A DNA stretch of 64,000 nucleotides from Candidatus Fermentithermobacillaceae bacterium (GCA_012842685.1 DUSI01000060.1:5024-69023); one strand, 5' to 3'. Counted from the first letter of the stretch, positions 4,611-39,175 are shown. Translations and numbers: made by a program. The notes: a model not told the origin generated them from the letters alone.

Positions 4611-6716
4611 ATGACCATCCTCACCGTACAGAACCTCACTAAGCACTTTGGCGCCCGTACGGTTTTCAAAGACGTTTCCTTCACCGTATCAGAAGGGGAA
4701 AGGGTCTGCGTCATAGGACGGAACGGAGAGGGGAAGACGACTCTCTTAAGAGTCCTGGCCGGCGAACTGGAGCCCGACGGTGGCGAGTTCGCCATTACGG
4801 GCAAGAGAAGCGCGGGGTACCTCTCCCAGGACGTGCCCACTTTCAGCGATACGGTCCTAAACGAGCTCCTTTCCTCACGGCGGGACATCGTGGCTCTTCA
4901 CGCCCGGATGAGAGACCTGGAAGCGAAGATGGCCGCGGCCTCAGAGCCCCTGCGCGGAGCGGACCTTGATTCCCTGATGGACGAGTATGCCCGGGTGACG
5001 GCCCGTTTTGAGGCTCTGGACGGGTATAACCTGGAGCATAAGGCCAAGGCAATTCTTGCGGGACTCGGTTTCAAGCAGGAAGCCTTCTACAAGGAAACGA
5101 GCGTGCTCTCTGGCGGCGAGAGAATAAGGCTTGCCCTGGCGAAGCTGCTCCTTCTCGAGCCCGACATCCTGCTCCTCGACGAGCCCACGAACCACCTGGA
5201 CCTAAGGGGCGTTGAGTGGCTCGAGGGGTTCCTCCGAGATTACCCGGGCGCGGCGCTCATAGTCAGCCACGATAGGTATTTCGTAGACCGGGTGGCCACC
5301 AAGGTACTGGAGCTGTCGGAGGGGAAGGCCAAGGTATACACTGGAAACTACTCTGCTTACCTGGCCCAAAAAGAACTGGAGCTCAAAGCCCAGGCTGAGG
5401 AGTACGAGCGTCAGCAGGCCCTCATCGCCCGGACGAAGGCGTTCATACAGAAATGGAAGGCGACGCCCAGGAGAAAAAAGCAGGCCGAAAGCCGGGAAAA
5501 GATGCTCGAACGACTTGAGATAGTCGAAAAGCCCAAACCGGAAAAGAAGGCCATGGGTCTTAGTTTTGAGATGGAGAAGGAGTCCGGCGACGAAGTCCTG
5601 GAGGTAACCGGCCTCGGGAAGTCCTTCCCCGTGGATAGCGGCGGCGTGAGGACTCTCTGGCGGGATTTTTCCTGGCTTGTAAGGCGCGGGGACAGGGTAG
5701 CTCTCGTGGGACCCAACGGCTGCGGAAAGACGACCCTCTTAAAGTGCATCGTGGGCATGGATAGCGACTACGAAGGCAGGGTCAAATTCGGCCAAGACGT
5801 GATCGCCGCGTATTTCTCCCAGGGGCTGCAGGATCTAAACGAGGAGAACACTGTCCTCGAGGAGATTAGGTCTCTCGGAGTCCCGTACCAGGACGCCCGG
5901 GACCTCTTGGGGCGATTCCTTTTTTCCGGAGACGAGGTGGAAAAGCCGGTAAGGGTGCTTTCCGGCGGCGAGAGAAACCGGCTCGCCCTCGCGAAACTCG
6001 TCTTGAGCAAAGGGAACCTTCTCCTCCTCGACGAGCCGACCAACCACCTGGATATGGCGTCCAGGGAGGCCCTTGAAGGGGCGATTGAGGACTTCCCCGG
6101 TACGTTGATCTTTGCTTCCCACGACAGGTACTTCATCGACTCCCTCGCCACGCACCTCTGGATCTGGGACGGAGAAACCATCCACATCTTCAAGGGGAAC
6201 TACTCGGAGTACCGAGCCAGGATGGAGGCGGGGGAGGATTTCCTGTTCGAGGAGGAGAAGCCTTCCTTTTCTCTCTGGCTCAGAGCGAAAGGCATCGTAC
6301 TGCCCGTAGACCGCCAGAGGAGCCGCCAAGCGGGATCCCCGGGCGCGACATCCGGTCGGGGAGAAGGGCGTTCTCAAGGCGAGGCTGGGAGTATCCGGGA
6401 GCGACGAAGCGGCCCGCCCGGCCGTGGAGAGGCTTCTTCCCTGGAGGAACGCCGGAAGCTGGCGGCGCTCAGGAAGGCGCTGGCGCAGGAACTCGAACGC
6501 CTGGAGACCGAGATCGAGACCCTCGAGCTACGGAAAGAAGAGCTGGTCCGGATCTTTAGCGACCCGTCTTCTTACCGGGATGCCTCGGCGCTGCCGTGGA
6601 AGGAATATAAGGACATAGAGAAGGAGCTGGAATCCCTCTATTCCAAGTGGGACGAGCTGGCCGAGAGGGTTGCAGGAACCTCCGGAGACAAAGAGAAGAC
6701 ATCTAGTCAGGCATAA
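4611..6716 (+). CDS. ABC-F family ATPase (two NBDs, no TMD) with Uup-like C-terminal coiled-coil extension
   Basis: Two Walker A motifs (GRNGEGKTT, GPNGCGKTT), two signature motifs (LSGGERIRLALAKLL, LSGGERNRLALAKLV) and two Walker B motifs (LLLDEPTNHLD). The C-terminus has an R/S/G-rich linker followed by a coiled coil (LEERRKLAALRKALAQELERLETEIETLELRKEEL). Confidence 0.9.
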   Translation: MTILTVQNLTKHFGARTVFKDVSFTVSEGERVCVIGRNGEGKTTLLRVLAGELEPDGGEFAITGKRSAGYLSQDVPTFSDTVLNELLSSRRDIVALHARMRDLEAKMAAASEPLRGADLDSLMDEYARVTARFEALDGYNLEHKAKAILAGLGFKQEAFYKETSVLSGGERIRLALAKLLLLEPDILLLDEPTNHLDLRGVEWLEGFLRDYPGAALIVSHDRYFVDRVATKVLELSEGKAKVYTGNYSAYLAQKELELKAQAEEYERQQALIARTKAFIQKWKATPRRKKQAESREKMLERLEIVEKPKPEKKAMGLSFEMEKESGDEVLEVTGLGKSFPVDSGGVRTLWRDFSWLVRRGDRVALVGPNGCGKTTLLKCIVGMDSDYEGRVKFGQDVIAAYFSQGLQDLNEENTVLEEIRSLGVPYQDARDLLGRFLFSGDEVEKPVRVLSGGERNRLALAKLVLSKGNLLLLDEPTNHLDMASREALEGAIEDFPGTLIFASHDRYFIDSLATHLWIWDGETIHIFKGNYSEYRARMEAGEDFLFEEEKPSFSLWLRAKGIVLPVDRQRSRQAGSPGATSGRGEGRSQGEAGSIRERRSGPPGRGEASSLEERRKLAALRKALAQELERLETEIETLELRKEELVRIFSDPSSYRDASALPWKEYKDIEKELESLYSKWDELAERVAGTSGDKEKTSSQA

Positions 6717-6750: not shown

Positions 6751-7545
6751 GTGGAAGCCCCGTTTGGTTTGAACCCCTACATCGACCTGATACTCAAGCG
6801 CTCGACGGTCAGGTCCTTTACCGACCAGGATGTATCCGATGAGACCATGGAGATTCTTGCCCGGGCCGCCCAGCAGGCCCCGTTCACGGGACAGATGTAC
6901 GCCTTTATCTACACCAGGGACAAGGAGAAAAAAGAGGAGCTTTCCAGGTACCTGGGAAGGTTCATAGTAAACGCCCCGGTGTTCGTCCTTTTCTGCATGG
7001 ACTTTCGGAAGCTCGAGAAGTTCATAGCTTACAAAGGAAGAAAGAATAGGGCAAATGATGTGGAGATGCTCTTTCTGGGCATCCAGGATGTCGCCTACGC
7101 CGCCATGAACTTCGTGATGGCCGCGGAAGCCCTGGGGCTGGGCACTTGTTTCTTCGGCGGCGCGCCCCACATCGAGCCTATCCTCACAAAGATGTTTGAC
7201 CTGCCTGAACGCGTCTACCCCGTCGTCGGCATGGTCGTCGGTTACCCTGCCAAGAAGAGCCCGCCGAGGCCGAGGATACCCACTTCCTGCGTCCTCATGA
7301 AAGACAAGTACCACGACCTTACCGCCGAAGAAGTGGAAGAAGCCATGGGCATCATGGACGCGGGGCTCATCCGGGAAGGCTACTACGTGAACCTGAACGC
7401 CAAGATCCCCAAGCCCGAAGAGGGAGAAGACGACGTAGACTACGACCGCTACGGTTGGAGCGAACACATATCCCGCAAGTACGCAAGGCGCACTCCCGAG
7501 CCGGTCATAAAGGAGTACCTGCGAGGCAAGGGTATAGTTATCTGA
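6751..7545 (+). CDS. Nitroreductase-family (FMN-dependent) oxidoreductase
   Basis: N-terminal LKRSTVRSFTDQDVSDETMEILARAAQQAP typical of the nitroreductase fold; size 264 aa. Confidence 0.7.
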   Translation: MEAPFGLNPYIDLILKRSTVRSFTDQDVSDETMEILARAAQQAPFTGQMYAFIYTRDKEKKEELSRYLGRFIVNAPVFVLFCMDFRKLEKFIAYKGRKNRANDVEMLFLGIQDVAYAAMNFVMAAEALGLGTCFFGGAPHIEPILTKMFDLPERVYPVVGMVVGYPAKKSPPRPRIPTSCVLMKDKYHDLTAEEVEEAMGIMDAGLIREGYYVNLNAKIPKPEEGEDDVDYDRYGWSEHISRKYARRTPEPVIKEYLRGKGIVI

Positions 7546-7584
7546 GATACGCGGGATGAAGAACCATCCGCCAGAGTCCGGGGC

Positions 7585-8892
7585 GTGGAGATCCGGCTTA
7601 GAGAGGTGTTTCGCTTGAAGACCGAGAGGCTGTACTGGTCAGATCCTATGGGGCGCGAGTTTGAAGCAAGGATTGTGGAAATCGCCCGGCTTCAGGGCAG
7701 CCGGATTGGGCTCATCTTGGACCGCACCCTCTTTCACCCTGAGGGTGGCGGACAACCTGCCGACAGGGGGTTTCTTACGCTCCTTTCCGAAGAAGCCGTG
7801 GCCCTTTTTGGGCGGAGCGACCTCGGTGTCCAAGAGGTGTATGAGGAAGGAGAGCGGATAGTGCATATCATATCCGCCGAGAGATTCCCAGACTGCTTGC
7901 CCCCGGACGTTCCGCAGGCACCCGAAGGCGGCTGGCCCGTTAAGGGGGCCATAGACTGGGAGTACCGGTTTGACCTCATGCAGCAGCACACCGGGCAGCA
8001 CATCCTCTCCCGGGCTTTTGAGGAACTCGCCAGTGCCCGTACCGTTGGCTTTCACCTGGGCAAAGACTACGTGAGCATCGACCTCAGCATCGGCTCTCTT
8101 TCCGACGGACAGAGAGACAAGGTAGAAGAAAGGGCCAACCAGGTGGTTTTCCAGGACCTCCCCGTAACGGGACGGGAGTACCCGAAAGGCCGGCTTCCCG
8201 AGGGCGTCCGGAGCAGGTTCCAGATAGACGCTGAAAGCATCCGTATCGTCTCGGTGGGGGACTACGACCTCTGTCCGTGCGGGGGCACCCACGTGACAAG
8301 CACGGGCCAGGTCGGGCTCATAAAGATAAACCAGGTAGACCGGGCCCACGGCGGGGTCCGCGTCATATTCAGATGCGGGAGGAGGGCCCTTACGGATTAC
8401 AGAGAGAAGGAGCGCCTCCTGGGACAGGCTTCGTCTGCCCTGTCGGTCCCTCCGGGCGATGTCCCGCGGGCGGTTGAACAGGCCCTCGCCCGTCTCCGGG
8501 ATGCCGAAAAGGAGCTCCAGGATGTCCGAGAAGCGCTCTTGGACAGTGAGATTGAAACGCGCTTGAGGGCCCTATCCGGATCCGGGGAGCCCTTTACCGT
8601 TCAGGTTTTCGAGACTCTTGAGGGCGACCGGCTGAAGTACGCTGCGAGGAAGATGAGTGAGTCTCTTGGGAAGATCACGGTTTGCGCCGCCCTCGCGCCG
8701 AAGTTTTCCGCCGTCGTGATATCCCCCGCCGGCGCGCCCGACGCCAGGGAGGTGCTCTCCAGGATATCCGCCAGGTGGGGAGGACGGGGCGGCGGGACGC
8801 CTTCCTTTGCCCAGCTGGGGGCCAAAGAGCCTCTGGTCGCGGCTTCCCAGGCGGTGAAGTCGTCCATAGAAGAGATCCTGCGTAGCCTCTAG
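7585..8892 (+). CDS. AlaX-L type alanyl-tRNA editing protein (Ser-tRNA(Ala) deacylase; AlaRS editing + C-terminal DHHA1-like domain)
   Basis: Zinc-binding editing motifs HTGQHILS and CPCGGTHV; C-terminal GGRGGGTPSFAQLGAKE equals the AlaRS C-terminal GGGG...FAQAG motif. Confidence 0.8.
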   Translation: MEIRLREVFRLKTERLYWSDPMGREFEARIVEIARLQGSRIGLILDRTLFHPEGGGQPADRGFLTLLSEEAVALFGRSDLGVQEVYEEGERIVHIISAERFPDCLPPDVPQAPEGGWPVKGAIDWEYRFDLMQQHTGQHILSRAFEELASARTVGFHLGKDYVSIDLSIGSLSDGQRDKVEERANQVVFQDLPVTGREYPKGRLPEGVRSRFQIDAESIRIVSVGDYDLCPCGGTHVTSTGQVGLIKINQVDRAHGGVRVIFRCGRRALTDYREKERLLGQASSALSVPPGDVPRAVEQALARLRDAEKELQDVREALLDSEIETRLRALSGSGEPFTVQVFETLEGDRLKYAARKMSESLGKITVCAALAPKFSAVVISPAGAPDAREVLSRISARWGGRGGGTPSFAQLGAKEPLVAASQAVKSSIEEILRSL

Positions 8893-21548: not shown

Positions 21549-22313
21549 TTGAGAAGCGGCGAGGGAGTCCTGTTCATCCACGGGACGGCGAGTTCGGGAC
21601 GTGTTTGGAAGAACCTTTTGGCGGTTTTGGCTTCCGAGCCGCCCGTCCAGGGTTTCTGCGGTCCTTCCGAACCTGTGGAATATCTTACTCCCGACATCCC
21701 CGGCATGGGCGAGTGTGAGGTGCCGGAAGGGCCACTCTCTTTTGAACGCTGGTGCGACTACTTTCGCGGCTTTGCCTCGGGGCGAAGACTGCACCTGGTC
21801 GGTCATTCTCTGGGAGGAGCTATAGCCGTCCACCTTGCGGAAGAGCCGTGGGTCTTGTCAGTGTCGCTCATAGCGCCCGCGACCAGGGCCTTCTGTGAGG
21901 CCAGGCGTGCCTCCTCGAGACCCGGACAGAATCCCGGTTCAATCCTGCCGGACCGGCCACTGACGAGGCTCGTTGCCGCTCCCGGGCAGATCTCCCGGGA
22001 GGATGCGCGGATCTTGCGGGAAGACTACGCCAGGGCGGGCCGGCTCCTGGCAAAAGGCCTTCCGTGGCCGCCGTTTCCGAAGGCCGAGGCCGAATACCTC
22101 AGGGGGAAACCCGTGCTGTTGGTGTACGGCGAACGGGACGAGGTGATCAGCCCCGCTTATTTCCGGCAGCTTGCGAGGGATCTCTCTGCTGCGGGTGTGA
22201 CGGCGGAAGTGGTAAGCCTCCCTGGCTGCGGCCACATCCCTCAGGTAGAAGATCCACACCGGGTTGCGGGCATCCTGAGGTCTTTTTGGCGAGAGGCCTG
22301 TCGGTTACGGTAG
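21549..22313 (+). CDS. Alpha/beta-fold hydrolase
   Basis: HGTASSGRVW oxyanion region, GHSLGG nucleophile elbow, C-terminal GCGHIPQ catalytic His. Confidence 0.75.
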   Translation: MRSGEGVLFIHGTASSGRVWKNLLAVLASEPPVQGFCGPSEPVEYLTPDIPGMGECEVPEGPLSFERWCDYFRGFASGRRLHLVGHSLGGAIAVHLAEEPWVLSVSLIAPATRAFCEARRASSRPGQNPGSILPDRPLTRLVAAPGQISREDARILREDYARAGRLLAKGLPWPPFPKAEAEYLRGKPVLLVYGERDEVISPAYFRQLARDLSAAGVTAEVVSLPGCGHIPQVEDPHRVAGILRSFWREACRLR

Positions 22314-22323
22314 CCTACGCGTT

Positions 22324-22575
22324 CCAGAGAGCCCATCATCCAGGGAGCCTATTTGCCAGAGAGTCTGTCTTCCAGAGAGACTGTCTTCTAGAGGGTCCAT
22401 CTTGCAGAGGGCCCATCCATTCCCGGCCGCACCTATCCCGGAAAGCCCGTCTGTCTCCCGGTGCATCCATCTCAGAAGGACCATCTGTCTCCTGGTGCAC
22501 CCATCTCAGAAAGACTATCTGTCTCCTGGTGCACCCACTCCAGAAAGCCCACCTAGTCCGGATAGTCTACCTTCA
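22324..22575. repeat. Intergenic minisatellite: six ~16-bp units (CCAGAGAGnCnnTCTT) followed by three 33-bp units (GTCTCCyGGTGCAyCCAyCTCAGAArGnCyAyCT)
   Basis: Contiguous degenerate direct repeats with a CCATCT core; no unique spacers. Confidence 0.8.
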
Positions 22576-23371
22576 TCTTGGAAGGCTCGGTGCCTTCAAC
22601 TACGAACCGCCACGGGTAGTGCTTTGCTTCCCCTGAGTACCCAACTCCCACCCGTTTCGTGACGATGTAGGGAGGATTCAGGCCGGTACCATCGGGAGGA
22701 TAGGCGATGAACATGTCGTATCCTGGCCGCCGGATGTCATCTGGTCCGGCGTCAGGTAAGACCATGCGTTCTCTGGAGCGCCGGTCTGCCTCCCGAGTGG
22801 GCTCCTCTATCCGCCATCTTTCCATGGACCCTCCATCTGGCCATCCTTCCATGTGCCATCTTTCTATGCGACATCCTTTTGCGCGGTATTCCTCCGTGAG
22901 GCCTGTCCCGTTGTCTGCGCCGGTGATCCCCATAGCCTGGCATAGTCTGCCCGGACCTTCGGCATAAGGAAGGGCTCCCCTGCGGCGCCTGGCCATGAGC
23001 TCGAAACCTGCCACCGGTTCCAGGGAGCGTATGAGGACGGCGTGGGGGACGCCTTCGGGAGCAGCGACCACGTTGAGCATCCAGTGCATGCCGTACGTGA
23101 AGTAGACGTACGCCCGTCCGGGAGGGCCGTACATGACTTCGTTTCGCTTTGTCCTGCGCCACCCGTAGGCATGGCAAGCGCGGTCTTCCGGACCTTCGTA
23201 AGCTTCGACTTCGATGATCCTCCCTGCGGTGAGACCTTCCGGAGTGAGCCTCACCAGAAGAAGCCCGAGGAGCTTCGGCGCGAGTTCAAGCGCCCGCACG
23301 GAGCAGAAACGGGCCGTTATGCGGGAGAGGCGCAAGAAGTCCTCATGCGCTGCTCCGTTGCGTTGTTCCAT
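22553..23371 (-). CDS. mpg: DNA-3-methyladenine glycosylase (AAG/MPG family) with an internal ~50-aa W/R-rich insertion
   Basis: [11 protein letters not shown]...[22 protein letters not shown]...[11 protein letters not shown]...[16 protein letters not shown] are hallmark MPG blocks. An insertion ([31 protein letters not shown]...) sits between the last two blocks. Confidence 0.85.
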
Positions 23372-23445
23372 CTACCGCTTGATTCCTCCAATATTGAGTA
23401 ATTGAGCAACTGTCATAAGATGTACTGATTGCGACTGGAATCAGG

Positions 23446-23560
23446 CATTTCTTGTACATTACTCATACCGCGACCGGCAGAAAATGTACAATAGCGCCGG
23501 TGCGAGTAGCATTTCTTGCACAATGGACCCACCCGAACCGGCAGGAAATGTACAATGCTC
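23446..23560. promoter_or_regulatory. Four direct repeats containing TG(T/C)ACAAT, spaced 31-32 bp, in the mpg/osmC divergent intergenic region (candidate operator array)
   Basis: GCATTTCTTGTACATT, GGCAGAAAATGTACAAT, GCATTTCTTGCACAAT, GGCAGGAAATGTACAAT, with cores at 23454, 23485, 23517 and 23549. Confidence 0.5.
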
Positions 23561-23691: not shown

Positions 23692-24078
23692 ATGGCCGAC
23701 ACCCAGAAGATCACAGCCAGCGTCCGGGAAAGCGCTATCATGTGCGCCGATTCCAAGGGTAACCAGGTCGCGGTAGGTGGCGAGGGCCCCCGCGCGACCG
23801 ACCTGCTCCTTATGGCGGTGGCAGGATGCAGTGGTTCGGTTCTCAAGGCGGTTCTTGGCAAAGAAGGCTTTGTCCCCACGAAGGTCGAGATGACTATAGA
23901 AGGCGTTAGAGCCGATGCCCCGCGGAGATTTGAGAGCATAAACGCCCACTACTACGTGGAGTGCCCGGGTCTCACGGAGGAAAAACTGAGAGAGTGCCTG
24001 GAGAAGACCGAACTGGCCTGCCCGGTCATCCAGTCCCTGAGCGCCAAAGTGAACGTCACGTTCACGCTGGCCAAGTAA
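23692..24078 (+). CDS. OsmC/Ohr-family peroxiredoxin-like protein
   Basis: Two conserved Cys in the typical context (LLLMAVAGCSGSV; LACPV); size 128 aa; RBS GAGGAGGG upstream. Confidence 0.75.
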   Translation: MADTQKITASVRESAIMCADSKGNQVAVGGEGPRATDLLLMAVAGCSGSVLKAVLGKEGFVPTKVEMTIEGVRADAPRRFESINAHYYVECPGLTEEKLRECLEKTELACPVIQSLSAKVNVTFTLAK

Positions 24079-25197: not shown

Positions 25198-28100
25198 TTG
25201 AACCTTTCTAAAAACGCGATCCAGGTCTTGGAGAAGAGGTACCTGAAAAAAGACGAGACCGGAAAACCTCTTGAGACGCCCGCCGAGATGTTCTGGCGGG
25301 TAGCCAAGAATATCGCCCTTATGGATCTGTTATATTACCCCGAGGTCTATTCCGGTCTCGCCAAGAAGCAGAAGAAAACCACCTTCGTCGCGGGAGCGCC
25401 CGAGAAGCCCGAAACGGCGGGGGAACACGAGTTCTCTCTTTCGGAATGGGACTGGGCGACCCTGAAAATGGCCTTTAGCCGTCTTGAGTCTAAGGGCCTT
25501 GCGAAGATTTCGTGGGACGATTTCAGGGAGCTGGTGGATGCGAGGAAGGACGAGATCCGCGATCTTGCGGTGAGATTCTACGAAGTGATGACCGACGTGA
25601 AATTCCTTCCCAACTCTCCTGCCCTGATCAACGCAGGGCGAGAGCTCCAGCAGCTGTCCGCTTGCTTCGTCCTGCCCATTGACGATTCGATGGTGAGCAT
25701 CTTTGATTCTTTGAAGCACGCCGCGCTCATCCACCAATCAGGCGGCGGTACTGGGTTCAGCTTCAGCCGCCTGAGGCCCAAGAACGACGTGGTGAGGTCC
25801 ACCGGCGGAGTCGCGTCGGGACCCGTTTCGTTCATGAAGGTGTTCAACGCCGCGACAGAAGCGGTTAAGCAGGGCGGAGTGAGGCGCGGCGCCAACATGG
25901 GGATCCTGCGGGTGGATCACCCGGATATCCTCGAGTTCATCACCTGCAAGACCGACAACAGCGAGCTCACCAACTTCAACATCTCGGTAGGGGTCACCGA
26001 GAAGTTTATGGAAGCCGTCAAGAAAGGCGAAGAGTACGAGCTGGTGAACCCCAGAAACGGCCAGGTGACGGGGAAGCTTAATGCCCGCGAGGTCTTCGAG
26101 AAAATCGTGGACCAGGCCTGGAGGAACGGCGAGCCGGGCATCATATTCCTCGACCGTTTGAACAGGGACAATCCCACTCCTGAAATCGGCCAGATAGAGA
26201 GCACCAACCCTTGCGTTGCGGGCGACGCCCTTGTCTCCACCGAGATGGGCCTGATCCCCATCAGGGAAATGGCGGAGAAATGGCCTGACGGTGGGATCAA
26301 GGTAACCATCGACTGGCGTGTCTTGGGTGAAAGGCTCCGGGAAGGAACGTCGGGGACCTTCGTGGAGACGGCTACCGGAGTAGGCGTCGTGCCCCTGGCA
26401 AGAGCTTTCCGGACGGCCGTCAAGGAGGTCATCCGGGTCAGGACCAGGAGCGGGTACTCGGTAGAGGTTACGCCCGATCATAAGATCATGACAACTCGTG
26501 GGTGGGTGCCTGCCGCCGAGCTCAAACCAGGAGTGGATTCGGTCCTTATCCAATCCGGCGCGGGCCGGTTCAGCTGCGACTCGTCCCTCCCTGCGGGGGC
26601 CCAAAACGCAAGGACCGGCGCCAACGGCCGTACATACCGGAAAAACTTCCCCACAACTTGGTCCAGAGAGCTAGGTATCATCTTGGGCTGGCTCGTCGGC
26701 GACGGCTGGCTTAGAGACTCTGGGAAGAACTGCCGCGTCGGTTTCACCTTCTCCGGACAAGATCTCGGCGTGATGGAGATGGTGAAGTCTGCCCTTGACA
26801 GGTGGTATGGCCCCGTAAAGCCGGTTATGCGGAAGAATGGCGTCTATCATCTCCGCTACCACTCCAAGTCGGTGGTAGAGTTCTTCCGGAGCCTTGGGGT
26901 TCAGCCAGTGAAAGCCGCCTTCAAGAGAGTGCCTGAGACCATATTCAGGGCTACCCGCGAAGCGGTAGTGGGTTTCCTCCAGGGGTTGTTCACTGCCGAT
27001 GGAACGCTGGCGACATCGCCGAACGGTACGGCCTACTTGAGGCTTACGTCCAAATCAAGGCTCCTCCTGGAGGATGTGCAGGTCCTCCTCCTGAGCCTCG
27101 GGATTATGTCGACCATCTATGACAGGTCGAGGCCTGCCAGGGAGTGTTTCTCCAACAAGACTGCCGGAGGCTCCGAAAGAGCGTATGTGAGCGACGGCGT
27201 GCTCTACGAGCTCCAGGTGTCCAAGGAAGACCTGGGACTCTTCATAGATGAAGTGGGCTTTGCCGACGACCGCTTTGCCGGGAAGATTGGAGAACTGAAG
27301 AGACGGTCGAGAGGGTTCTACCGCCGTCATTACGTGGATGTTGTCGAAGCCTTGGAACCCGTTGGCGAAAAGGAAGTCTTCGACCTGACTGTACCCATCA
27401 GCCACTCTTTCATAGCTAACGGGATTGTGGTATCCAACTGCGGAGAACAGCCTCTCTTGCCCTACGAGGCTTGCTGCCTGGGTTCCGTGAACCTGGGCGC
27501 GTTCACGAAGCCCGTCTGGGGCATGGAGAACCCGCCTAAGGACGTCACGGAGCTTGTGGACTGGGACGGGCTCAGGAAAACCGTCCGGGCGGGAGTGCAT
27601 TTCCTGGACAACCTGATAGATGCCAACAAGTACCCGCTGCCCCAGATAGACGATATGGCCCACGGGAACAGGAAGATCGGCCTTGGGGTGATGGGCTGGG
27701 CCGATATGCTCATCGACCTCGGCATACCCTACTGCTCCGAGGAAGCCCTCCAGCTCGCTGAAAGGGTCATGTCTTTCATCGAGGAAGAGTCCGTGAAGGC
27801 TTCTATGGAGCTGGCGGAGAGCCGGGGCGTATTCCCCAACTACGAAAAGAGCGTCTTCGTGGCCAAGAACAAGCCCGTTAGGAACGCCACTACCACCACC
27901 ATCGCCCCGACAGGCACCATCAGCATCATCGCGGGCGCGTCCTCGGGCATAGAGCCTCTCTTCAGCATTGCCTTCACCAGGCACGTGCTGGATAAGAAGG
28001 CCCTCGTGGAAGTGAACCCGAGGTTCGAAAGGGTGGCCCGGGCCCTCGGCTTCTTCAGCGACGCCCTCATGGAGAGGATAGCGGAGCACGGCACGCTCAA

Positions 28101-28959
28101 GGGCATCCAGGGCATACCCGATGAGGTGCGTAAGGTCTTCGTCACCGCCCACGACATAACGCCCGAGTGGCACATAAGGATGCAGGCCGCGTTCCAGAAG
28201 TACACTCACAACGCGGTATCCAAGACCGTGAACTTCCCCAACGAAGCCACCCGCGAGGACGTCAAAGAAGTGTTCATCCTGGCCAACAAGCTCGGCTGCA
28301 AGGGCGTGACCGTCTACCGGGACGGGAGCCGGAGCGAACAGGTGCTTACGGTCGGAGCCGACAAAAAGGCGAAGGCCGCGGACGAGGGGCTGGGAGCGTC
28401 AGGGGAACTCCCGGGAGGCCACGAAGGGAAGGCCAAGGCAAAGGTCAACGGGGTCTGGGGTCACGTAAAACCCATCGAGCGGCCGGTGCGTCTGGACGGT
28501 TTCACGGCCGCCAAAGAGACTCCTGTGGGCAAGCTGTTCCTCACCCTGAATACCCTGGAAGGTCACCCGGTGGAGCTGTTTGCCCAGATCGGGAAGGCAG
28601 GAAGCGACGTGGCGGCCTTCACAGAGGCGATCGCCAGGCTCATCTCGATCGCCTTGAGGTCGGGCGTGGATCCCCAGGAGATCGCGGACCAGCTTGTGGG
28701 TATCGGCGGGTCCCGCGCCATAGGTTTCGGCCCCAACAGGGTCCGTTCGGTGCCGGATGCCATAGGGCAGTTCCTGGATGAGTACCTCAGGGGAGAGTCG
28801 GAGAAGGAAGACGAAGAGGAAGACTTCGGTCCTGTCCAGGATGCGCTACCCTTGGTTCCGGGTAAGAAATTCGGCCTGTGTCCCCAGTGCGGTACCTGGA
28901 ACCTGATCCACGTTGAAGGGTGCGCGAAGTGTCTGGCTTGCGGACATAGTGAATGTTAG
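25198..28959 (+). CDS. nrdJ: Class II (adenosylcobalamin-dependent) ribonucleotide reductase, interrupted by a 409-aa intein
   Basis: RNR blocks (SACFVLP, GGGTGFSFSRLRP, ESTNP|CGEQPL) and a C-terminal Cys-rich zinc ribbon (CPQCGTWNLIHVEGCAKCLACGHSEC). The extein total is ~844 aa. Confidence 0.9.
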   Translation: MNLSKNAIQVLEKRYLKKDETGKPLETPAEMFWRVAKNIALMDLLYYPEVYSGLAKKQKKTTFVAGAPEKPETAGEHEFSLSEWDWATLKMAFSRLESKGLAKISWDDFRELVDARKDEIRDLAVRFYEVMTDVKFLPNSPALINAGRELQQLSACFVLPIDDSMVSIFDSLKHAALIHQSGGGTGFSFSRLRPKNDVVRSTGGVASGPVSFMKVFNAATEAVKQGGVRRGANMGILRVDHPDILEFITCKTDNSELTNFNISVGVTEKFMEAVKKGEEYELVNPRNGQVTGKLNAREVFEKIVDQAWRNGEPGIIFLDRLNRDNPTPEIGQIESTNPCVAGDALVSTEMGLIPIREMAEKWPDGGIKVTIDWRVLGERLREGTSGTFVETATGVGVVPLARAFRTAVKEVIRVRTRSGYSVEVTPDHKIMTTRGWVPAAELKPGVDSVLIQSGAGRFSCDSSLPAGAQNARTGANGRTYRKNFPTTWSRELGIILGWLVGDGWLRDSGKNCRVGFTFSGQDLGVMEMVKSALDRWYGPVKPVMRKNGVYHLRYHSKSVVEFFRSLGVQPVKAAFKRVPETIFRATREAVVGFLQGLFTADGTLATSPNGTAYLRLTSKSRLLLEDVQVLLLSLGIMSTIYDRSRPARECFSNKTAGGSERAYVSDGVLYELQVSKEDLGLFIDEVGFADDRFAGKIGELKRRSRGFYRRHYVDVVEALEPVGEKEVFDLTVPISHSFIANGIVVSNCGEQPLLPYEACCLGSVNLGAFTKPVWGMENPPKDVTELVDWDGLRKTVRAGVHFLDNLIDANKYPLPQIDDMAHGNRKIGLGVMGWADMLIDLGIPYCSEEALQLAERVMSFIEEESVKASMELAESRGVFPNYEKSVFVAKNKPVRNATTTTIAPTGTISIIAGASSGIEPLFSIAFTRHVLDKKALVEVNPRFERVARALGFFSDALMERIAEHGTLKGIQGIPDEVRKVFVTAHDITPEWHIRMQAAFQKYTHNAVSKTVNFPNEATREDVKEVFILANKLGCKGVTVYRDGSRSEQVLTVGADKKAKAADEGLGASGELPGGHEGKAKAKVNGVWGHVKPIERPVRLDGFTAAKETPVGKLFLTLNTLEGHPVELFAQIGKAGSDVAAFTEAIARLISIALRSGVDPQEIADQLVGIGGSRAIGFGPNRVRSVPDAIGQFLDEYLRGESEKEDEEEDFGPVQDALPLVPGKKFGLCPQCGTWNLIHVEGCAKCLACGHSEC
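26212..27438 (+). mobile_element. Intein with LAGLIDADG homing-endonuclease domain, inserted at the catalytic Cys of the NPCGE motif of nrdJ
   Basis: Block A C-VAGDALV (Cys1); block B TPDHKIMT; LAGLIDADG blocks ILGWLVGDGW and GFLQGLFTADGTL; C-terminal block VFDLTVPISHSFIANGIVVSN, followed by the extein +1 Cys (CGEQPLLPY). Confidence 0.85.
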
Positions 28960-37558: not shown

Positions 37559-39175
37559 CTACCTCCAAAGCCTGCGGAGGAAGTCAGAGGTCCAGCTAAG
37601 GGGCCCTTTCTGCCCTTTTCCCGGCTGGCCGCTGTTTGACCCGCCGGCCTTTGGGTCTGCTCCCTTGGGTCCCGGCTGCTTTTCGTCTTTGCCCTTGGAG
37701 TCTTTGGGGTCTCTTGCGCCTGGCTTATCGTCCTTGCCCTTGGAGTCCTTTCCTGGCTTCTCGTCCTTATCCTTCTTGTCGCCCTTGTCTCCTCGATCGT
37801 CTTCGTGTGGCTTGACGGGTTTATCAGGGCTCTTGCCTGGGTCTTGCTTCCCGCCCTTTGGAGTGGAAGGAGAACCTGAGCCGGTGGGGGTGAGGCCCGA
37901 CTGAGTATTGCCCTTCTTGTCGTCTTCCTTTTTGTTGGGGCCCTTCTCGCTTTCTTTCTTGTTGTCTTTCTCGACGTGGTCATCCCGGCGATCTCTATCG
38001 TCCCGTTTCTCCATATCGTTCTGGTCGCCGGTGGACTTCGATGCCTCGAGCAGGGCTTTGAGCAAGTCTTTCGCAAGATTCTCCAGTTCTTTCTGGGACT
38101 TTTTCGTACCGAGCTTTGGGTCTCCCCAGTTGATCTCGGGTAGGCCGCTCCTAATCATGTCCAGGAACGTCTGGACATCGGCCTTCTTCTGGAGGCCGGG
38201 CGGGACGGGGCTTCCCTTGCCGGGAGTGGTTGGCGGAGCTCCCTGGGCAGCATGCGGAGTCGCCTTGCCCGACGCGCCTTTTTCTTCCCCCGTTGACCGC
38301 GGATTGACCTCGTTCGCACCCGGAGAGGGAGCGCCCGAGGGCCCTGCGGTTTCCCCTTCTCCGGCGGGCGAGCTCCCAGGCAACTCGTCTACCTGGGCTT
38401 CCAGGTGGAGAGGTTCGGCCAAGGGAGTAGATCCGCCGGGCTCGGCTTGCCCGGAGGTCGTGCCGCCGGCCACGTAAATCCCGGGATCCGCTCCCGGTTC
38501 CATCCAAGGTTCTTCGTAGCTTTCCCATTCAAGATTCCAGAGGGCCCATAGGGCCGCCCGTCCTGCCGACACGCCCAGCTCCTGGGCCATAGCCCTGGTT
38601 TCCATATCCAGCACGAGCGCGGTGGCCTCGCCGACGGAACCGAAGATCTCATGGGCGATGGCAGATACCTCGGCGGAAACGTCTCTATCCCCTCGGGTGC
38701 CCTCCGGCACCGGGATGATGGCGATTATGACCTGCTTGACGCCTGGCACCGCGTCCCTCAGGCTGCTCAGGACGGCGCTTATGGCCTTCATCTCCACTCT
38801 TACCGCCGAGAGGGCTGCCGCCCCTGCCTCATCGAGCGCCACCGCCTTCCTCACCAGGCCGCGGTCGTTTACCTCGAGCTCTATGCTTGCGGCGGTGTCT
38901 CCCGACGAGTCGAAGGTCACATAGGCGAGTACCGGCCTCGCGTAGAGGTAGTGCCGGTAGCCGAAGATGGACGACACGATCAAGATGGAGGCCAATATGG
39001 CAGCAGGCACGAGCTTCCGCCAGAGGAAGCCCTGGAAACGGGGGGTGGGCACCCAGACCTCTTCACCCGGCATGAGGTCGCGCCTATCCCGCCAGGTCAC
39101 GAACTCACCGTCCGCGGTAAGGGCGGTTACCCTATCGCCGGAGCGTTCTATCACCAGGGCACGTCTTCTGTACAA
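37559..39175 (-). CDS. rsgI: Anti-sigma-I factor RsgI-like (RsgI_N domain, one TM, extracytoplasmic domain with K/D/G/P-rich disordered tail)
   Basis: N-terminal MYRRRALVIERSGDRVTALTADGEFVTWRD...PGEEVWVP matches the RsgI N-domain; TM AAILASILIVSSIFGY; directly downstream of the sigI-like gene. Confidence 0.7.
   Translation of the reverse strand: MYRRRALVIERSGDRVTALTADGEFVTWRDRRDLMPGEEVWVPTPRFQGFLWRKLVPAAILASILIVSSIFGYRHYLYARPVLAYVTFDSSGDTAASIELEVNDRGLVRKAVALDEAGAAALSAVRVEMKAISAVLSSLRDAVPGVKQVIIAIIPVPEGTRGDRDVSAEVSAIAHEIFGSVGEATALVLDMETRAMAQELGVSAGRAALWALWNLEWESYEEPWMEPGADPGIYVAGGTTSGQAEPGGSTPLAEPLHLEAQVDELPGSSPAGEGETAGPSGAPSPGANEVNPRSTGEEKGASGKATPHAAQGAPPTTPGKGSPVPPGLQKKADVQTFLDMIRSGLPEINWGDPKLGTKKSQKELENLAKDLLKALLEASKSTGDQNDMEKRDDRDRRDDHVEKDNKKESEKGPNKKEDDKKGNTQSGLTPTGSGSPSTPKGGKQDPGKSPDKPVKPHEDDRGDKGDKKDKDEKPGKDSKGKDDKPGARDPKDSKGKDEKQPGPKGADPKAGGSNSGQPGKGQKGPLSWTSDFLRRLWR

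Follow-up and report, generated by a model that had tools for sequence, protein, structure and literature searches.

Results

The hydrolase-mpg locus

The window analyzed here is a 64,000-nucleotide stretch of DNA from a Candidatus Fermentithermobacillaceae bacterium, a thermophile of anaerobic digesters. Its family is an uncultured lineage of Bacillota that, to our knowledge, is known only from metagenomes. The species was not found among GTDB representative genomes, where the best match reached 70% identity, and the genus is mentioned in one paper (PMC10215811).

Two genes converge at the locus. The first, on the plus strand, encodes a 254-aa alpha/beta-hydrolase (21549-22313; Pfam Abhydrolase_6, E 1.8e-23), and the second is mpg, a DNA-3-methyladenine (alkyladenine) glycosylase gene of 272 codons (22553-23371, minus strand; PF02245, TIGR00567) and the sole minus-strand gene in its immediate neighborhood. 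Their stop codons bound a 239-nt convergent gap (22314-22552) made up wholly of degenerate tandem units. Inside mpg, alignment with homologues delimits the DNA for a lineage-specific loop insert of 61 aa (aa 159-219; 22715-22897, minus strand). Immediately upstream, the gene is preceded by a direct repeat of 64 bp x 2. An identical mpg product is encoded on contigs from 33 blocks of public assemblies, including biogas-fermenter metagenomes and the NCBI MAG GCA_029782375.1, and one source annotates it as DNA-3-methyladenine glycosylase of a Candidatus Fermentithermobacillaceae bacterium.

A degenerate minisatellite fills the convergent gap

Tandem Repeats Finder (TRF) divides the gap into two adjoining arrays. 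A 16-bp unit, TTCCAGAGAGCCTATC on the plus strand, is repeated 6.0 times at 22322-22417 (75% matches, score 80), and a 34-bp higher-order unit is repeated 3.6 times at 22429-22551 (83% matches, score 160); a seed-and-extend repeat search agrees, returning spacings of 16 and 34 nt. Read directly on the mpg-sense strand, the whole gap resolves into about 14 degenerate copies of a single 16-18-nt motif, GAYRGNCYCTCTGGAA, the first of which begins immediately past the mpg stop codon, and the 34-mer is itself a dimer of two diverged 16-18-nt subunits. The hydrolase stop codon forms the left boundary of the array, and its right end (22551/22552) lies flush against the mpg stop codon (22553-22555). 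The initial annotation, which had placed an array of 16- and 33-bp units at 22324-22575 between the hydrolase and mpg, was thus right about the periodicity and the location; the longer unit is nevertheless 34 bp rather than 33 bp, and the array ends at 22551/22552 rather than at 22575, since 22553-22575 is mpg coding sequence and lies outside it.

With TRF scores of 80 and 160, the array is a tandem repeat, or minisatellite, in the structural sense, and this locus accounts for every TRF row scoring 80 or more in the 64-kb window. The 34-mer is matched twice in the window (0.00 expected from shuffles) and the 16-mer, at up to three mismatches, seven times (1.15 expected), with five of the seven matches inside the array. 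A palindrome, GGTGCACC, occurs in two of the 34-bp units, at 22494 and 22528, and nowhere else in the 64 kb. A dispersed repeat family of the REP/BIME/MITE kind would place many copies of its unit at other loci. Beyond the gap, the units were not found in the window except for an isolated 16-mer at 38535 (21 bits by position weight matrix, PWM), which was set aside as a chance match inside a coding ORF of 538 aa. In a scan of metagenome contigs with the 16-nt pattern TCTGTCTCCYGGTGCA, which is too short to be selective, the matches listed (80 of at least 120 stretches) were all single-copy chance occurrences, and none had the three matches expected of the mpg locus. An origin of the array in the 3' coding ends of mpg or the hydrolase was also considered and rejected, as 283-774 of 1000 shuffles reached the observed score.

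The array recalls a CRISPR array in that units some 30 bp long, each with a short palindrome at its core, occupy a non-coding stretch. Its units are, however, contiguous and of two lengths, each starts exactly one unit length (16 or 34 nt) after the previous one so that there are no unique spacers, and the gene and Pfam table holds no cas genes within 10 kb on either side. The locus is not a CRISPR array, as the initial annotation had also concluded.

Coding and RNA potential of the array

Open reading frames run across the array on both strands (22064-22636, plus; 22305-22484 and 22336-22500, minus), and a 59-aa ORF across it is called by JGI on contig L216, which could suggest that the array encodes a small protein, if not a structured small RNA or a 3'UTR element. 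The repeats themselves speak against a protein: neither unit length (16 or 34) is divisible by 3, so that the frame is not kept from one unit to the next. Of the plus-strand ORFs over the array, the two longest (22064-22636 and 22402-22662) were tested and gave no Pfam match, the JGI table lists no Pfam family for the 59-aa ORF, and the arrays of relatives are unrelated in sequence, so that no ORF is conserved. At the RNA level, no Rfam family matched the gap at its gathering score (only the low-complexity Mico1 appeared, at 27.9 bits against 60), folding of the gap was no better than that of shuffled sequences (z +1.00 and -0.45 for the two strands), and no terminator-like site, in the form of a G+C-rich stem-loop followed by a U tract, was found on either strand of 22314-22552. 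Taken with these results, an encoded RNA or protein product is so improbable as to be almost negligible.

The array is fixed within the species

The tandem structure itself raises the possibility of a hypervariable VNTR, or contingency locus, whose copy number changes often between strains, and the initial annotation had indeed proposed that copy number might be hypervariable. Ten long contigs from different samples, which diverge from the window by 0.06-0.85% overall, are colinear with it over the array and mpg and carry no indel; across the 1251 bp that span the two, nine of the ten are identical and the tenth differs by one substitution. A multiple alignment of 15.8 kb contains 43 segregating sites and no indel, and a single segregating site (22395) falls within the array, where the background rate predicts approximately 0.65. 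Another three contigs, all short, are likewise colinear without indel, bringing the total to 13 assemblies from independent samples with no indel at either the array or mpg. At the protein level, among approximately 15 billion proteins the 90% cluster holds the 272-aa form, one 272-aa I169V variant and two end-of-contig fragments.

The array is fixed in the species, where fixation refers to the assembly consensus of a nearly clonal population, in which copy-number variants at low frequency would escape detection. Copy number, whose variation among strains defines a VNTR, did not differ among the 13 consensus sequences. The low unit identity, just 75-83%, independently argues that slippage is no longer efficient. 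Some observations would fit a variable locus: three short contigs end within repeats (window 22884, 22854 and 22364), which could reflect assembly trouble, and between species the related loci L019 and L222 differ by one unit. Set against the uniformity of the assemblies and of the protein cluster, these leave frequent copy-number change highly improbable.

An intact glycosylase with an expanded surface loop

The product of mpg is a genuine MPG/AAG glycosylase with its fold and catalytic residues intact. It matches PF02245 with an E value of 2e-56 (190.6 bits against a cut-off of 27) and TIGR00567 with 187.3 bits (cut-off 116.35), and the four best NCBIfam equivalog models cover the same residues at 109-174 bits, below their cut-offs of 182-272. 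An AlphaFold2 model has a mean pLDDT of 87.2, with the core above 90, and a Foldseek comparison of this model with human AAG (1ewn_A) gave an E value of 6.6e-19 and a target-normalized TM score of 0.85. Residues E56, Y58, H67, Y90, Y93, N100 and R115 align to human E125, Y127, H136, Y159, Y162, N169 and R182, the human numbers being our own count along the human sequence, and E56, Y58, H67, Y93, N100 and R115 are invariant across 74 aligned homologues. The protein thus shares both the fold and the catalytic set of human AAG/MPG and the bacterial 3-methyladenine DNA glycosylases (PF02245, TIGR00567; PDB 1EWN, 1BNK). With its core and active site unaffected, the glycosylase has most likely kept its activity.

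The protein differs from these human and bacterial enzymes in two respects. It has a clade-specific C-terminal tail, GTxPxKMKVDYP, and it carries the 61-aa insert between a helix ending in CQAMGI and the MFIAYPP strand, where most homologues have a short turn. More precisely, the insert separates the conserved N154-G155-x-x-L158 block from the F221-I-A-x-P-P block, and the profile matches stop at about residue 161 and pick up again near 232. Among the 77 homologues with recognizable anchors, 68 have 31-40 aa between the preceding helix and the R[IV]G motif; this spacing grows to 51-70 aa in the seven nearest homologues (P0002-P0008) and to 93 aa here. The insert itself is modeled with a pLDDT of 47-66; two of its repeat copies appear as the strands of a beta-hairpin, with a pLDDT of only 58-66.

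Part of the insert is internally repetitive. The 12-mer ATRGAARGATGG occurs exactly three times in the 64-kb window, against 0.01 expected, and all three copies (22814-22825, 22841-22852 and 22856-22867, minus strand) lie within the insert, where they encode MERW, MEGW and IERW. They sit at offsets 0, 15 and 42, and the autocorrelation of the insert peaks at lags 15, 27 and 42. The tryptophans of these repeats arise from a recurring TGG. The repetitive part is restricted to about aa 167-190, the remaining half of the insert being non-repetitive, and TRF detects the in-gene repeat alone only weakly (22840-22878, 15 bp x 2.6), with a score of 50 that equals the level of noise rows. The peptide quoted in the initial annotation corresponds to aa 173-203 of the 272-aa ORF. 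Base composition also sets the region apart, with a GC3 of 0.56 in the insert and 0.50 in the repeat core, compared to 0.70 in the rest of mpg and 0.76 in fifteen neighboring genes.

The insert is not shared by MPG orthologues from unrelated taxa: the insert peptide had no homologue at E <=1e-3 among 1.84 billion representative proteins. All seven nearest homologues (P0002-P0008), which belong to Ca. Fermentithermobacillaceae and show 57-69% BLASTP identity to the query (70-83% over ungapped columns), nevertheless carry a low-complexity insert of 15-35 aa at the same loop, and none of these can be aligned with the window insert beyond its flanks; the next relatives, P0009 and P0010, have no insert at this loop. 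A conserved accessory domain was rejected on both of these grounds, the lack of a homologous insert among the 1.84 billion representatives and the unalignable inserts of P0002-P0008. The feature is a clade-wide, fast-evolving surface loop that has been lengthened further here, partly by in-frame tandem duplication. The initial annotation correctly recognized an in-frame insert between conserved MPG blocks that typical MPGs lack; its further proposal, that a repeat expansion had invaded the gene, does not hold, because the seven closest homologues already have an unrelated insert at this position. We conclude that the insert, most likely a tolerated loop expansion, is neither an ancestral domain nor a fresh invasion of a standard gene.

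The two repeats share only a hexamer

The proximity of the two features invites the idea, put forward in the initial annotation, that the in-gene repeat is related to the array. The hexamer CCATCT (AGATGG on the gene strand) is certainly common to both, with four copies in the 239-nt array and three in the insert compared with a window-wide density of 0.42 per kb, and this hexamer is all that the in-gene and intergenic repeats share. A Smith-Waterman alignment of the insert DNA with the array, in both orientations, gave a score reached by 18 of 500 dinucleotide shuffles, which is chance level, and the best alignments leave out the CCATCT units. PWMs built from either repeat and run in both directions over the 64-kb window did not rank the other repeat above background. 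Because the alignment and PWM tests are both at chance level, we treat the two as putatively separate events. Copying of the insert from elsewhere in the window was also rejected, the best match being 13 nt long (E 0.14). Overall, the reading offered in the initial annotation is partly supported; on relatedness and on hypervariability the data go against it.

Arrays with different units recur in the same gap

The neighborhood of mpg is conserved across the family, comprising an intein-containing ribonucleotide reductase, NrdR, a thioesterase, OsmC, mpg on the opposite strand, the hydrolase and SbcC/SbcD-like genes. The hydrolase gene adjoins mpg in the relatives L011, L014, L016, L017, L019 and L222, and in the nearest relatives both genes stop at codons equivalent to those in the window. 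The distance between them differs: the homologous gap measures 14 nt in L011 and L016 and approximately 35 nt in L017, and the genes overlap in L221, compared with 239 nt here. The gene pair of the nearest relatives does without an array, and the array is therefore not needed for the hydrolase-mpg pair.

Arrays of other sequence occupy the same convergent gap in two further lineages. In L014 and L015 (P0008) the units are 31/61 bp long, and in L015 they place GTGCAC every 31 bp and the array ends in a 16-bp palindrome, TGTGCACCGGTGCACA; in L019 and L222 (P0004) the units are 21 bp long and repeat TCTCGAGA every 21 bp. The periods of 21, 31 and 34 bp lie near whole helical turns, as in arrays of protein-binding sites, and the unit of each array holds a short palindrome. 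Repeats are also present nearby. L014 and L015 carry an in-frame repeat of 18 bp x 4.6 (9/18-bp) at the same MPG loop, encoding GMPGMAKMARIAGMPGTAGTPGIAGMP, together with a 9-bp x 14 repeat within the hydrolase gene, and L019 and L222 have arrays upstream of mpg as well. Homology between the window and L015 arrays is marginal (reached by 30 of 1000 and 12 of 400 shuffles), and homology of the L019/L222 array with either of them was rejected as chance level.

The L019 and L222 arrays are homologous to one another and differ by exactly one 21-bp unit, while the two mpg genes are approximately 91% identical. Their array gap is 90.4% identical, compared with 90.6-94.5% for the other intergenic gaps of the pair and 73-83% for four-fold sites; special constraint on this array was rejected, since it is conserved no better than ordinary intergenic DNA. 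The difference of one unit, with gap identity of the ordinary level, indicates that units are gained or lost on the time scale of species without special constraint. A neighbor-joining tree of the MPGs pairs every lineage that has an array with sister lineages that lack one, a pattern that takes three gains to explain, or a single gain with no fewer than five losses.

Tandem duplications have arisen at this locus repeatedly, and the recurrence of arrays in three lineages could reflect a local hot spot of mutation, or else selection that favors an array. A rival reading takes the array for a platform of protein-binding sites, regulatory or of the centromere or iteron kind, in which dyad cores spaced at whole helical turns would be bound cooperatively by a dimeric protein. 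The pair of GGTGCACC palindromes 34 bp apart, the short palindromes GTGCAC (L015) and TCTCGAGA (L019/L222) in the units of other lineages, and the shared position of the array in all three are compatible with such a role. Two GGTGCACC matches were, however, reached by 28 of 100 shuffles, the unit sequences are unrelated between lineages and so preserve no shared binding specificity, arrays are absent altogether from the closest relatives, and in L019/L222 the conservation of the array does not exceed that of other gaps. Furthermore, the six 16-bp units each span 1.5 helical turns, which runs against the phasing argument, and no rep, par, partition, replication or regulator gene was found within 10 kb on either side. 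We regard a binding platform as very unlikely.

Discussion

A model for the origin of the two repeats

We propose a model for both features. We consider it fairly probable that the array and the insert are products of tandem duplication, tolerated where constraint is weakest, and that neither is an active or variable device. We infer that duplication or slippage was the generating process. In this model, a short convergent gap, such as the 14-35 nt of the nearest relatives, would have grown by successive tandem duplications of a 16-18-nt seed, and a 34-nt dimer of two diverged seeds would later have been duplicated in turn. The copies would then have decayed to their present degeneracy, upon which slippage would have ceased and the array become fixed in the species. 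It is plausible that the non-coding array serves at most as spacer DNA separating two converging transcription units. Within mpg, the ancestor of this Ca. Fermentithermobacillaceae clade would already have had an insert of low complexity and rapid evolution in the loop between the last helix and the C-terminal strands. In the lineage of the window, in-frame duplication of a 12-15-nt unit may have contributed to the growth of this insert to 61 aa; in that unit a recurring (A)TGG would yield the Met and Trp residues of the insert.

The array is probably without function, and the insert, too, does not look like a functional device. The array is an ordinary minisatellite, previously undescribed, old and degenerate.

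The counterpoint to this tolerance account is that three lineages (the window, L019/L222 and L014/L015) have arrays of unrelated units at one and the same gap. A possible explanation would be a recurrent mutational hot spot, in which mpg is transcribed head-on to replication, forks stall, and slippage or template switching on restart duplicates sequence both in the gap and in the last third of mpg. Such a hot spot would bear on how the repeats arose, and they could still be functionless. GC skew is positive on the plus strand across nearly the whole window, and mpg is therefore probably transcribed head-on to replication; of the 18 genes around the locus, 16 lie on the plus strand, leaving mpg and one other gene on the minus strand. 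The confinement of the highest-scoring TRF rows of the window to this locus, the 64-bp x 2 repeat upstream of mpg, the unrelated units in the gaps of L014/L015 and L019/L222, the loop repeat in the L014/L015 MPG and the reconstructed gains all fit this idea. Tolerance, however, explains the recurrence without a hot spot: no intergenic DNA is under weaker constraint than a convergent gap, and in each locus there is no second such gap within several kb, so that duplications can survive here most easily. The other minus-strand gene of the block, a member of the PHP family, has no flanking array, the leading strand is read from skew and gene bias in a window that contains no origin or terminus, and the sample consists of three lineages. 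(An origin or terminus at the locus itself was rejected, as GC skew shows no switch there.) On balance a hot spot driven by replication conflict appears doubtful to us as the source of the repeats, and the broader claim that the mpg 3' end and the convergent gap form a long-lived duplication hot spot in Ca. Fermentithermobacillaceae, with at least three births of unrelated arrays and in-frame loop repeats on at least two occasions, strikes us as decidedly unlikely. The tolerance model remains the reading that we prefer.

Relation to known repeat systems

The mycobacterial MIRU/VNTR loci are bacterial intergenic minisatellites and provide the closest frame of reference. As in those loci, the units stand head to tail, are tens of bp long and fill the intergenic space up to the flanking stop codons, and whole units are gained or lost between related genomes, as seen in the single 21-bp unit that separates L019 from L222. 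Unlike those loci, the window array has no copy-number polymorphism within the species (13 assemblies), its units are far more degenerate (75-83%), it is a single locus in 64 kb rather than a dispersed family, and its gap is convergent rather than intra-operonic. Arrays of binding sites such as plasmid iterons and the parC/parS-type repeats of centromere-like loci offer a second comparison. The direct repeats of 16-34 bp, some with dyad cores and with roughly helical phasing, resemble these arrays, whereas the chromosomal location between a hydrolase and a repair gene, with no adjacent rep or par gene, does not; neither does the lack of sequence conservation across lineages, the closest relatives having no array.

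Significance

As it stands, the finding has little significance: for an uncultured thermophile it records a minisatellite of an ordinary kind, together with a loop expansion that appears to be tolerated. It does carry a warning for annotation, in that ORFs called across such arrays are artefacts, as with the 59-aa ORF on L216 and a 428-aa hydrolase on L015, and it identifies a loop of the AAG fold that can accommodate insertions as long as approximately 60 residues. The three lineages with arrays in one gap also provide a small replicated case in which two accounts of the birth of repeats, local mutation through head-on conflict and tolerance, could be set against each other. If the hot spot were true, the locus would represent a natural, phylogenetically replicated footprint of replication-transcription conflict, shaping both non-coding DNA and a protein loop in this family.

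Repeats flanking mpg in related lineages

In the lineage of the insert-bearing homologue P0008 (MAG GCA_050952125.1), a stretch of 1.4 kb around the glycosylase gene contains three tandem repeats. On its contigs L014 and L015, a 9/18-bp repeat (6492-6573) lies in frame within the same MPG loop that carries the insert in the window, a 31/61-bp array with the terminal palindrome TGTGCACCGGTGCACA occupies the gap between mpg and the hydrolase gene (6846-6988), and a 9-bp unit repeated 14.4 times runs in frame within the hydrolase itself (7695-7825). Gene calls give this hydrolase 310 aa in L014 but 428 aa in L015, the latter reading through the gap array. Since the L015 coordinates are offset by 1 nt past the array, the longer call probably stems from a frameshift in L015 or an error in its assembly.

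The lineage of P0004, another insert-bearing homologue, has, besides its array in the mpg-hydrolase gap, further short tandem arrays in the divergent gap between the OsmC-family gene and mpg, with units of 18, 11 and 10 bp (contig L019, 3547-3600 and 3662-3709; contig L222, 2609-2643, 2705-2742 and 2949-2980), and therefore also carries repeats on either side of mpg. A further array was found in L024 (DULO01000050.1, Ca. Fermentithermobacillaceae AS04akNAM_124), approximately 3 kb downstream of mpg, where about 9.7 non-coding units of 31 bp, with a 62-bp higher order, abut without spacers (7458-7776). Each unit contains a hairpin with a 9-bp stem, CAGTGGTAG-AAAAC-CTACCACTG, and the array had no match in Rfam.

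Gene neighbourhood and divergent promoter region

The lineage of P0005, represented by contig L219, has three transposase/integrase genes (DDE_Tnp_1, rve; 1-2928) upstream of mpg in place of the OsmC/thioesterase/NrdR block. The hydrolase gene is absent downstream of mpg in this contig, and likewise in the mpg-bearing contigs L012, L018 and L220. According to the Pfam tables, every relative's locus retains the intein of ribonucleotide reductase, a 1253-aa product in the window (25198-28959) whose intein carries a LAGLIDADG homing-endonuclease domain. The mpg product itself ends in a tail, GTxPxKMKVDYP (window 22553-22600), that extends past the usual MPG end (WRFV...) and is common to the clade of the window protein and its nine closest homologues (P0001-P0010); more distant MPG homologues do not have it.

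Between mpg and the OsmC-family gene (23692-24078), the window holds two copies of a 64-bp direct repeat (23445-23556) that are 77% identical over 48 aligned nt. Each copy contains CATTTCTTGYACA ... GRAAATGTACAAT, TGTACA-type palindromic hexamers spaced by approximately 32 nt within the divergent promoter region, and similar TGTACA motifs lie upstream of mpg in L019. The 64-bp repeat might serve as an operator, for which the OhrR operator, TACAATT-AATTGTA, is a possible parallel, but no regulator gene adjoins the repeat.

Contig ends within the window's repeats

At window 38535-38550, within a 538-aa minus-strand ORF, one isolated sequence, TTCCAGAGGGCCCATA, matches the 16-bp unit almost perfectly and scores 21 bits with the PWM; it was put down to chance. 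All three short contigs carrying part of the window's own locus (L216, L217 and L218) stop either in the repeat inside mpg or in the array of 16-bp units, their ends mapping to window positions 22884, 22854 and 22364, respectively, which suggests that these repeats break short-read assemblies. Such contig breaks could conceal length variants.
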